Positions 12,512 to 13,241 of a stretch of DNA of 39,376 nucleotides are shown here, piece by piece. The notes beneath the pieces were generated by a model. It had not been told where the DNA came from. It saw only the letters and a list, made by a program, of their open reading frames with translations, and searched no databases. Source of the DNA: a plasmid; sequence record NZ_CP096967.1; one strand, 5' to 3'. Within the stretch, counting starts at the first letter, position 1; the number at the start of each line of letters is the position of its first letter. A program made the position numbers and the translations under genes.

Positions 12512-13241
12512 GGAAAGAAATTGATACCGTACTTTTCGGAGTTCCGGCACTGATGGGCAAACATGGCATGATGAAATGATACCGAATTATCATGCTCGAT
12601 ATATTCTGAAGAACGCCTTTTTGATACCAAATACAAAAAGCTGCCGGAAGCCGGACACAAAAAATTGATACCATAAAACATTAGGGAAAAAGAACAAAGA
12701 GAAAACACTATATATAAATAATATATGAATATATAATATATGAATATATAATATATGAACCTATAAACATATAATATATGATTAATATACTCCACTTCCA
12801 GAAAGAGCAACACGAAGAATCTTCTTTTCCCTAAAGTTCTTTGTGTCGTTTCTCTCTATATCTGAATACAGAAAAACGGCTGCATCATAAAAGAAACGAT
12901 ACCGACACCATTCAGGAACTATCGCCCATCAGCAAAAGGATTGCATCTAATTGATACCTTTTCTGCCTGCACTGGAGAGAAACCGGGAAGGTATTTGATA
13001 CCGTACTTTTCCGGGTTCTGCCCGGCATGGACGATAAGAGAACATTATTATGATACCAAAAACTTTAGGGAAAAATAAAACTTCGGCAGTCTATAAACCT
13101 AAAACTATTTTTAACAAAAATAATTGTCCTATTATTTGCGACATTTATAGAAAACCACTATCTTTGAGTATTGAAAATAAAGAGATAAACAAACCTTTAA
13201 AGCTGGTTTGGCTGCCAGTATAAAGAACAGCAAACAAAATT
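12512..13241 (+). repeat. Composite repeat, full copy A (modules G - TATATA microsatellite - M - P)
   Basis: Near-identical to 35200-35925 (inverted) and 31266-31770 (inverted). Eight TGATACC boxes are present. 14-mer TTTTCCCTAAAGTT at 12818, its reverse complement at 13063. Confidence 0.9.

Follow-up and report, generated by a model that had tools for sequence, protein, structure and literature searches.

A repeated promoter-leader module ahead of ardC, rep and toxin operons in a pBF9343-family plasmid may mark an establishment and maintenance regulon

The 39,376-nucleotide record NZ_CP096967.1, referred to here in its full length as the window, represents a whole circular plasmid. It belongs to the pBF9343 family, whose members are conjugative plasmids from gut Bacteroidales. 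It raises the question why one module of about 160 bp, here called P, stands immediately in front of three unrelated genes or operons. We propose that P is a double-stranded promoter-leader cassette of pBF9343-group plasmids and that, on balance, it probably drives a repressor-controlled regulon for plasmid establishment and maintenance. The three copies are located as follows.

13086-13241, plus strand: P1 (promoter and leader), abutting the ATG of orf89 (13242), upstream of a DUF3791-DUF3990-zeta toxin operon
35200-35355, minus strand: P2, abutting the ATG (35199) of a 27-codon mini open reading frame (mini-ORF) that heads the operon ending in rep
37233-37371, minus strand: P3, abutting the annotated ATG (37232) of ardC

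Alignment of P1 (13086-13246) with P2 (35355-35195) gave 97.5% identity over 161 nt (E 1e-75), and with P3 (37371-37228) 96.6% over 145 nt (E 3e-64). The similarity spans ...CAGCAAACAAAAT(T/C)ATGAA in each copy and halts at ATG+2. The positions agree within a few bases with the original prediction for this DNA, and the conserved junction that it described, with the start codon at the module edge, was seen in every copy. A duplication that includes coding sequence is excluded, since similarity ends at ATG+2. Beyond this point the sequences of orf89, the mini-ORF and ardC are unrelated to each other. The genes upstream of P1, P2 and P3 (an OmpA-family gene, ardC and a resolvase gene) are also non-homologous. 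The downstream sequences are as unrelated as had been predicted, but the status of one of the three targets, orf89, is doubtful. In pBF9343 it carries a frameshift, each codon position has a similar share of its substitutions (11/7/10), and 17 nonsynonymous codons were counted versus 8 synonymous ones. With this frameshift and this even spread, there is weak support for orf89 as a real gene. Therefore, P1 more likely has the DUF3791-DUF3990-zeta toxin operon as its functional cargo.

Each copy contains the elements of a Bacteroides sigma-ABfr promoter, two palindromes and a structured leader.

P1 13135-13166 (plus), P2 35306-35275 (minus), P3 37338-37307 (minus): sigma-ABfr promoter, -33 box TTTG, 20-nt spacer, -7 box TATCTTTG
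P1 13125-13143, P2 35316-35298, P3 37348-37330: palindrome TGTC-N11-GACA straddling the -33 box, putative operator
P1 13106-13122, P2 35335-35319, P3 37367-37351: AT-rich palindrome TATTTTT-AAC-AAAAATA upstream of the -33 box
P1 13203-13218 (plus), P2 35238-35223 (minus), P3 37271-37256 (minus): leader hairpin CTGG-TTTGGCTG-CCAG
P1 13219-13244 (plus), P2 35222-35197 (minus), P3 37255-37230 (minus): invariant A-rich tract TATAAAGAACAGCAAACAAAATT and ATG

The sigma-ABfr promoter of Bacteroides consists of a -7 box TAnnTTTG and a -33 box TTTG about 19-21 nt upstream. Both boxes are present in the three P copies, in the form TTTG-N20-TAtcTTTG. They are conserved in four lineages that are otherwise only 50-72% identical.

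A transcription start site (TSS) mapped by dRNA-seq is available for a homologue. Plasmid p5482 of B. thetaiotaomicron carries a homologous ardC promoter with its -7 box at 31771-31778 and the ardC ATG at 31850. In the primary-TSS column of Ryan et al. 2020 (PMC7366714), position 31783 is one of the entries for the plasmid, in a sheet without strand, and the authors define a primary TSS as lying at most 300 nt upstream of a coding sequence. We assigned this TSS to ardC, because ardC, on the plus strand, is the sole gene that fits the definition. A strand or gene assignment for it was sought in the 2024 atlas and was not found. The TSS lies 5 nt past the -7 box and leaves a leader of 67 nt. By homology with p5482, the TSSs of the window should lie near 13171, 35270 and 37302. 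In Bacteroidetes, Shine-Dalgarno sites are largely lacking. The original prediction had read the module as a promoter with a 5' untranslated region and a ribosome binding site. Its promoter part has gained a full sigma-ABfr promoter and the TSS of a homologue, but the supposed ribosome binding site is better read as an A-rich leader. Taken with this change, P is very likely a functional promoter-leader.

The palindrome over the -33 box has four matches in the plasmid, where 0.24 would be expected. The fourth (30972-30990) has a P-like spacer (TGTCtaAAATAATctGACA) and lies inside the mobC coding sequence. In pBFY46 the palindrome is changed symmetrically to CGTC...GACG, and in B. faecis p2 it is replaced by another AT-rich inverted repeat.

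The leader of P is about 70 nt long. The string CTGsTTTnGCTGsCAGnATAAAnAAnAG and its spacing to the ATG are invariant against a background of 50-72% identity. One stem position of the hairpin is free. It was found as C:G in 9 distinct sequences, as G:C in 9 and as U:A in 1, and never as a mismatch. The remaining three stem pairs are invariant in the alignment (A6), of which 7 of the 15 rows were retrieved with patterns that fix just these three pairs. p5482 was found through its ArdC protein and is an unbiased sample; it keeps the CTGG/CCAG stem and ATAAAGAAC with a wholly different loop. Covariance models from Rfam gave no match at E <= 1 on 12450-13300, and over the whole window they matched only a group II intron. 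An antisense or kissing partner for the hairpin loop was also considered and rejected, as CAGCCAAA was found in the plasmid only within P.

P1 and P2 are part of a larger repeat, which the original prediction had overlooked together with the doubtful status of orf89. The repeat and its parts are the following.

12512-13246, plus strand: 735-bp inverted repeat, partner at 35921-35195, 92% identical; P1 and P2 form its 3' end
12822-13077, plus strand: U' block directly upstream of P1, bounded by the inverted pair TTTTCCCTAAAGTT / AACTTTAGGGAAAA
35362-35676, 31267-31611 and 30414-30670, minus strand: further U' copies, with a partial copy at 24572-24686 (plus strand)
12701-12760, 30333-30431, 31543-31611 and 35655-35723: AT-rich tandem repeats with a period of about 15 bp (TATATAATATATGAA-like), found ahead of the relaxase gene and between T and U blocks

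The 735-bp repeat is a mosaic of a T block, the AT-rich tandem, U and P. Such blocks recur in seven intergenic regions and turn up in nearly every large intergenic region of the plasmid. Only P3 is a bare module, with 13059-13251 shared with 37415-37224. Within the same repeat pair, P is 98% conserved versus 89-93% for the flanking blocks. U' and P together form a unit of about 420 bp, which is duplicated in CP103229. A shorter form of the inverted pair TTTTCCCTAAAGTT / AACTTTAGGGAAAA flanks about 50 bp upstream of P3 (37400-37471). The inverted motif that bounds U' resembles the rep iteron TTAGGGACAAAAACCCAACTT.

P is not confined to the window. About three copies are found in each of some 30 pBF9343-family plasmids, whose hosts in PLSDB are Bacteroides, Phocaeicola and Butyricimonas. 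Diverged modules, 50-72% identical, stand before genes in three other plasmids: five genes in Phocaeicola salanitronis pBACSA01, three to four in pBFY46 and four in a second B. faecis plasmid (p2). Further diverged modules are carried by metagenome and IMG/VR contigs. Thus the module occurs upstream of genes in other Bacteroidales elements, namely three more plasmid lineages and metagenome contigs, where the original prediction had suggested looking for it. A scan of species-representative genomes with a promoter and loop pattern returned only near-identical family copies and chance matches in unrelated phyla. The upstream regions of distant ArdC homologues were mostly uninformative, ardC being internal to operons there; p5482 was the sole exception. 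Plasmid Q1F2-p2 (NZ_CP018939, L063/L064) has six P copies, and we rejected these as additional usage because the record is dimer-like. It measures 73,970 bp, most of its backbone genes are doubled, many gaps are unannotated, and it looks like a dimer or an assembly artefact.

Copies of P inside one plasmid are highly similar. Identity is 97-99% in the window, 98-99% in pBACSA01 (with one further copy at only about 80%), and 80-95% and 84-95% in the other two plasmids. Across lineages, orthologous copies (for example ardC versus ardC) are no closer to each other than non-orthologous ones. In a comparison with pBF9343, a close relative, variants specific to one copy follow orthology at 3 sites. 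In a comparison with NZ_CP041231 (L004), which is more distant, three differences are fixed in all paralogues, and the variants specific to P3 are erased. The loop substitution TTTG to TCTG is present in every P copy of the NZ_CP041231 sub-family. As judged from these comparisons, the P copies evolve in concert and are homogenised within each plasmid.

Exchange at the module edge can be followed in CP103229. This plasmid has an extra inserted cassette of P, a 54-aa ORF, a 183-aa protein and a helix-turn-helix (HTH) protein. Its boundaries are exact and fall at the P ATG and at the left end of the second U'-P unit. In an IMG/VR contig P is fused to the same 54-aa ORF. Homologous recombination between P and U copies would be the simplest explanation for such exact joints. 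The idea of a portable cassette, put forward in the original prediction, is borne out by this joint and by P-type modules that precede more than 10 gene families in several lineages. P itself is not flanked by inverted repeats, and all copies in fully mapped records point at the downstream gene. An invertible promoter of the fin/Mpi type was rejected on these two grounds.

The genes behind P and the loci that bear on their control are these.

13583-15631, plus strand: operon downstream of P1 with DUF3791, DUF3990, an 86-aa ORF and the zeta toxin gene
36222-37232, minus strand: ardC, with ArdcN and zincin metallopeptidase domains, behind P3
35199-35116, minus strand: 27-codon mini-ORF behind P2, whose stop overlaps the ATG of the next gene (ATGA)
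34961-35119, minus strand: ribbon-helix-helix-like (RHH-like, CopG-like) gene, the first substantial gene behind P2; 52 aa here, whereas the full-length 83-aa form would end at 34868
32189-33346, minus strand: rep (Rep_3 initiator), last gene of the P2 operon
31777-32188: seven 22-bp iterons (AGGGACAAAAACCCAACTT...) in two groups adjoining rep
31107-31127: putative origin of transfer (oriT), GC-rich inverted repeat GCCCCC-N9-GGGGGC, just upstream of mobC

Directly behind P-type leaders we found genes for ArdC, a RadC-like JAB protein, a PD-(D/E)XK (Rpn) nuclease, a 575-aa ParB_N protein, DUF6908, toxin-antitoxin (TA) modules, small unknown proteins and an operon terminated by rep. Leading regions of plasmids typically hold anti-restriction and TA genes. 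On the assumption that the mob genes are the last to enter, ardC and the rep operon would belong to the leading region and have the transferred strand as their template, and P1 would lie outside. The mini-ORF is kept in close relatives. It is absent from pBACSA01 and from record L043, where P directly abuts the RHH-like gene. The ATGA overlap of mini-ORF and RHH-like gene suggests translational coupling. A conserved protein of about 80 aa that begins xFTLRL is the first substantial gene product behind a P copy in six lineages. In the window this RHH-like protein is truncated by Q53* (CAA to TAA, 34960-34962). The variant retains the predicted RHH domain and loses the C-terminal helix, and it is absent from NZ_CP081921 and pBF9343, both references compared.

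The closest known system is EGeRS2/Reg576 of the Bacillus pumilus plasmid p576 (Val-Calvo et al., PMC8708921). There, a conserved sequence of about 140 bp lies upstream of ardC and three other operons. Each EGeRS2 copy holds a vegetative promoter that is strong and has an operator at its -35 region, and in two copies also downstream of the TSS (PMC8708921). One copy is followed by the gene of an RHH repressor, expression after transfer is transient, and short inverted repeats in the leaders are thought to stabilise the mRNA (PMC8708921). P is similar in that a conserved sequence stands upstream of ardC and several operons. It likewise combines a promoter, a repressor site at the upstream box (putative in P) and inverted repeats in the leader. 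In both systems the downstream genes are variable, mostly of unknown function and organised in several operons. Where one EGeRS2 copy drives the RHH repressor gene, P2 is followed by an RHH-like gene that scores below threshold. In contrast to EGeRS2, which belongs to sigma-A and Bacillus, P has a sigma-ABfr -33/-7 promoter and is found in a different phylum. The EGeRS2 copies are 50-68% identical, whereas the P copies are 96-99% identical and their identity reaches the ATG. Unlike EGeRS2, the P set extends to the replication operon and to a TA operon that lies outside the presumed leading region. The Reg operator, a dual heptamer TTATCCCnnTTATCCC next to the -35 box, is absent from P, which has TGTC-N11-GACA over the -33 box instead. 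Therefore, P is an analogue of EGeRS2 and not a member by descent. Repressor binding and transient expression after transfer, as in p576, are proposed for P.

We propose the following course of events. Host RNA polymerase with sigma-ABfr would initiate about 5 nt past the -7 box, as at the mapped site of the homologue. The resulting leader of about 70 nt would carry a short hairpin and the invariant A-rich tract, and this tract would deliver ribosomes to the ATG at the module edge. One and the same cassette fronts ardC, the RHH-...-rep operon and the zeta toxin operon, and in relatives RadC/JAB, ParB-like, Rpn nuclease and TA genes. The same cassette stands before all these genes, and we therefore propose that they form one regulon; co-regulation of the P-driven genes is what we infer. 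A plasmid repressor acting on the common sites in P would hold the regulon down, with the CopG-like RHH protein as best candidate. By analogy with p576, this would result in autoregulation in established cells and in an expression burst upon entry into a repressor-free recipient. Homologous recombination and gene conversion between the repeats would spread P and keep its copies alike, and the same recombination would permit exchange of gene cassettes exactly at the ATG edge. For shared repression of the P copies by a plasmid factor we see the chances as even. That the RHH-like protein is this factor is a tentative assignment, somewhat less likely than the repression itself.

Several observations weigh against this proposal. 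The complete promoter consensus occurs five times in the plasmid (three P copies, one site upstream of mobC and one other). In this AT-rich plasmid it is not enriched, with 5 occurrences versus 3.6 +/- 1.9 in shuffles, and since this count is non-significant, enrichment was left out of the evidence. The mapped TSS belongs to the p5482 homologue and not to P. The hairpin is backed by one covarying pair, with 7 of 15 A6 rows selected by pattern, and the whole leader as RNA is not unusually stable (z = -0.9). The RHH-like protein stays below the Pfam cutoff (RHH_1, 18.1 bits versus 20.5). Its best structural match is CopG of pMV158, with a PDB E value of only 0.056. Its beta-strand FTLRL is invariant, whereas the -33 palindrome differs between lineages. 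The protein may therefore not bind the palindrome but perhaps an invariant element instead. The regulator could equally well be an XRE-type HTH protein (26922-27308). P1 is on the opposite strand and falls outside the presumed leading region, and the label 'establishment' therefore misfits some of the cargo. Moreover, the oriT position and the direction of transfer are themselves inferred.

We also weighed other explanations for the repeats. P could be a single-strand promoter of the Frpo/ssi type, in which the transferred strand folds into a mimic of a duplex promoter and leading-region genes are transcribed before the complementary strand is synthesised. Like P, the elements of F, of IncI plasmids (Masai and Arai 1997; Samuel et al. 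2024, PMC11541004) and EGeRS1 of pLS20 are repeated and non-coding and precede anti-restriction or early genes near oriT. This pattern, seen in F and ColIb-P9 upstream of an anti-restriction gene, is matched by ardC and the rep operon, which adjoin the putative oriT and would have the presumed T-strand as template. Frpo/ssi elements, however, are 300-600 nt long, highly structured (EGeRS1 -71 to -110 kcal/mol as DNA) and strand-specific, whereas P is a short element with hardly any structure that occurs on both strands. P3 forms no extended hairpin on either strand, with -15.4 and -15.8 kcal/mol for 188 nt (z = -1.6 and -1.3). P1 is in plus orientation opposite to P2 and P3, and the copies of pBACSA01 are likewise on both strands. 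In addition, P contains an ordinary duplex -33/-7 promoter, unlike EGeRS1, which has no constitutive duplex promoter, and the p5482 homologue is active in established, non-conjugating cultures. Folding of P3 and the copies on both strands led us to reject the single-strand promoter, which we consider highly improbable. Improbable too, if to a lesser degree, is that the repeats are by-products of recombination, with T, U and P blocks as substrates, scars or serine recombinase sites and the sharing of P without regulatory meaning. P1 and P2 do sit within the 735-bp repeat, blocks are shuffled among seven intergenic regions, cassette junctions coincide with block edges, and the resolvase gene (37656-38264) adjoins P3. 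But P is better conserved than the flanking blocks of the same repeat pair, and lineages with no more than 50-72% identity still share its promoter boxes, its hairpin and the spacing to the ATG. It always faces a start codon, with no inverted copy in fully mapped records, and in p5482 a single copy works as a mapped promoter.

A further explanation places the shared function after transcription. The leader would act as an RNA element to which a factor of the host or the plasmid binds, or else as a stabiliser or translation enhancer, and the promoter would be ordinary and unregulated. Several observations fit. The leader is the most widely conserved part and persists in B. faecis p2 and in the records L035, L038 and L049 despite a differing upstream promoter region. 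Its free stem pair covaries over three Watson-Crick types and its spacing to the ATG is fixed. The leaders of p576 hold short inverted repeats too, thought to prolong mRNA half-life. In p5482, stem and ATAAAGAAC are kept with another loop and without an RHH-like homologue (best tblastn E 0.32), which suggests that the leader acts independently of the RHH-like protein. On the other side, the hairpin has only 4-5 bp, its fold is non-significant, covariation concerns a single position, Rfam has no match even at the permissive limit, and the loop lacks a complementary partner elsewhere on the plasmid. The hairpin palindrome could also serve as an operator in double-stranded form downstream of the TSS, as in two of p576's four EGeRS2 regions. 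We regard a mainly post-transcriptional function as rather unlikely, and it is compatible with the promoter-leader cassette proposed here and need not replace it. A bolder version is more doubtful still. In this version, the 5-bp hairpin and the ATAAAnAAnAG tract at fixed distance from the ATG would make up a novel cis-acting RNA motif in conjugative plasmids of Bacteroidales. The motif would be read by a conserved host or plasmid factor and would define a plasmid-wide post-transcriptional regulon for genes of incoming DNA. Together with the TGATACC arrays described below, it would form a global control architecture undescribed in the phylum.

The proposed double-stranded cassette can be compared with two further groups of known elements. 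Putative mobile promoters are defined operationally (Matus-Garcia, Nijveen and van Passel 2012, PMC3488235; PMC3575422), and P falls under this definition, with 145-161 nt at 96-98% identity up to the ATG and non-homologous flanking coding sequences. The category is purely descriptive, and P adds to it a promoter, a putative operator, a conserved leader, concerted evolution and coherent cargo. P would thus count as an establishment-type regulatory sequence or a mobile promoter, as far as we found undescribed for Bacteroidales plasmids. In the published literature on pBF9343 and pMMCAT that we searched, the plasmid is named and the repeats are not described.

Small repressors with repeated operators at several promoters coordinate replication, stability and other functions in CopG-repB of pMV158, in the omega regulon of pSM19035 and in KorA/KorB of IncP-1 plasmids. 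The omega regulon covers a zeta toxin, and CopG is encoded by the first gene of the cop-rep operon, the position that the RHH-like gene occupies here. These systems share short operators only, and not a whole promoter-leader cassette as P does. Apart from the weak CopG-like RHH match, no sequence relationship between them and the P system was detectable.

A second repeated element of the plasmid is the heptad TGATACC. It occurs 35 times versus 3.4 expected, and 30 of the 35 sites fall into nine clusters of 3-4 sites each, 44-55 bp apart.

12522-12672, 12952-13057, 24575-24680 and 27369-27519, plus strand: TGATACC clusters
30435-30540, 31272-31377, 31649-31744, 35385-35490 and 35761-35911, minus strand: TGATACC clusters

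The clusters are co-oriented with the flanking operons, and most backbone promoters have one upstream. Only the heptads and the distances between them are kept in pBACSA01 and pBFY46, while the intervening DNA has diverged. Such arrays fit putative binding sites of a conserved protein, perhaps a centromere-like function or a global regulator.

Except for two insertions, a group II intron and an IS256-family element, the window is collinear end to end with NZ_CP081921 (35,580 bp), with 99.97-100% identity per segment. Identity to pBF9343 (NC_006873) is 93-97%.

2218-4616: group II intron, 2,399 bp (Rfam RF02012 and RF00029), with a reverse transcriptase/maturase ORF at 2848-4494
15622-17012, minus strand: IS256-family element, 1,391 bp, Transposase_mut (404 aa), GC about 45%, 8-bp target duplication

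The intron splits the gene of a VirB4/TraG-like conjugation ATPase, and the otherwise identical NZ_CP081921 is without it. The IS256-family element entered the zeta toxin gene 22 nt ahead of its stop codon and results in an altered C-terminus of the toxin. In NZ_CP041231 the HTH gene and the ParA-side operon are separated by an accessory island with a MACPF-domain protein (15301-22123), at the site that matches the T block 27369-27539 of the window. Two unrelated genes of the window open with an identical 40-nt stretch (5922-5961 and 21689-21728) encoding MKRVLLFFSLML, a shared N-terminus that looks like a signal peptide.

Among the conjugative plasmids that human gut Bacteroidales carry, those of the pBF9343 type rank with the most widespread, and their regulation is essentially unstudied. 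P provides a sequence handle on what is likely an establishment and maintenance regulon, and the small uncharacterised genes behind it are candidate anti-defence or establishment factors. The module would explain how newly acquired cargo comes to be equipped with expression signals at once, and as a compact and naturally portable promoter-leader it may be of use for the engineering of Bacteroides. The principle that a conserved sequence upstream of ardC marks a regulon would thereby be extended from Bacillus plasmids to another phylum.

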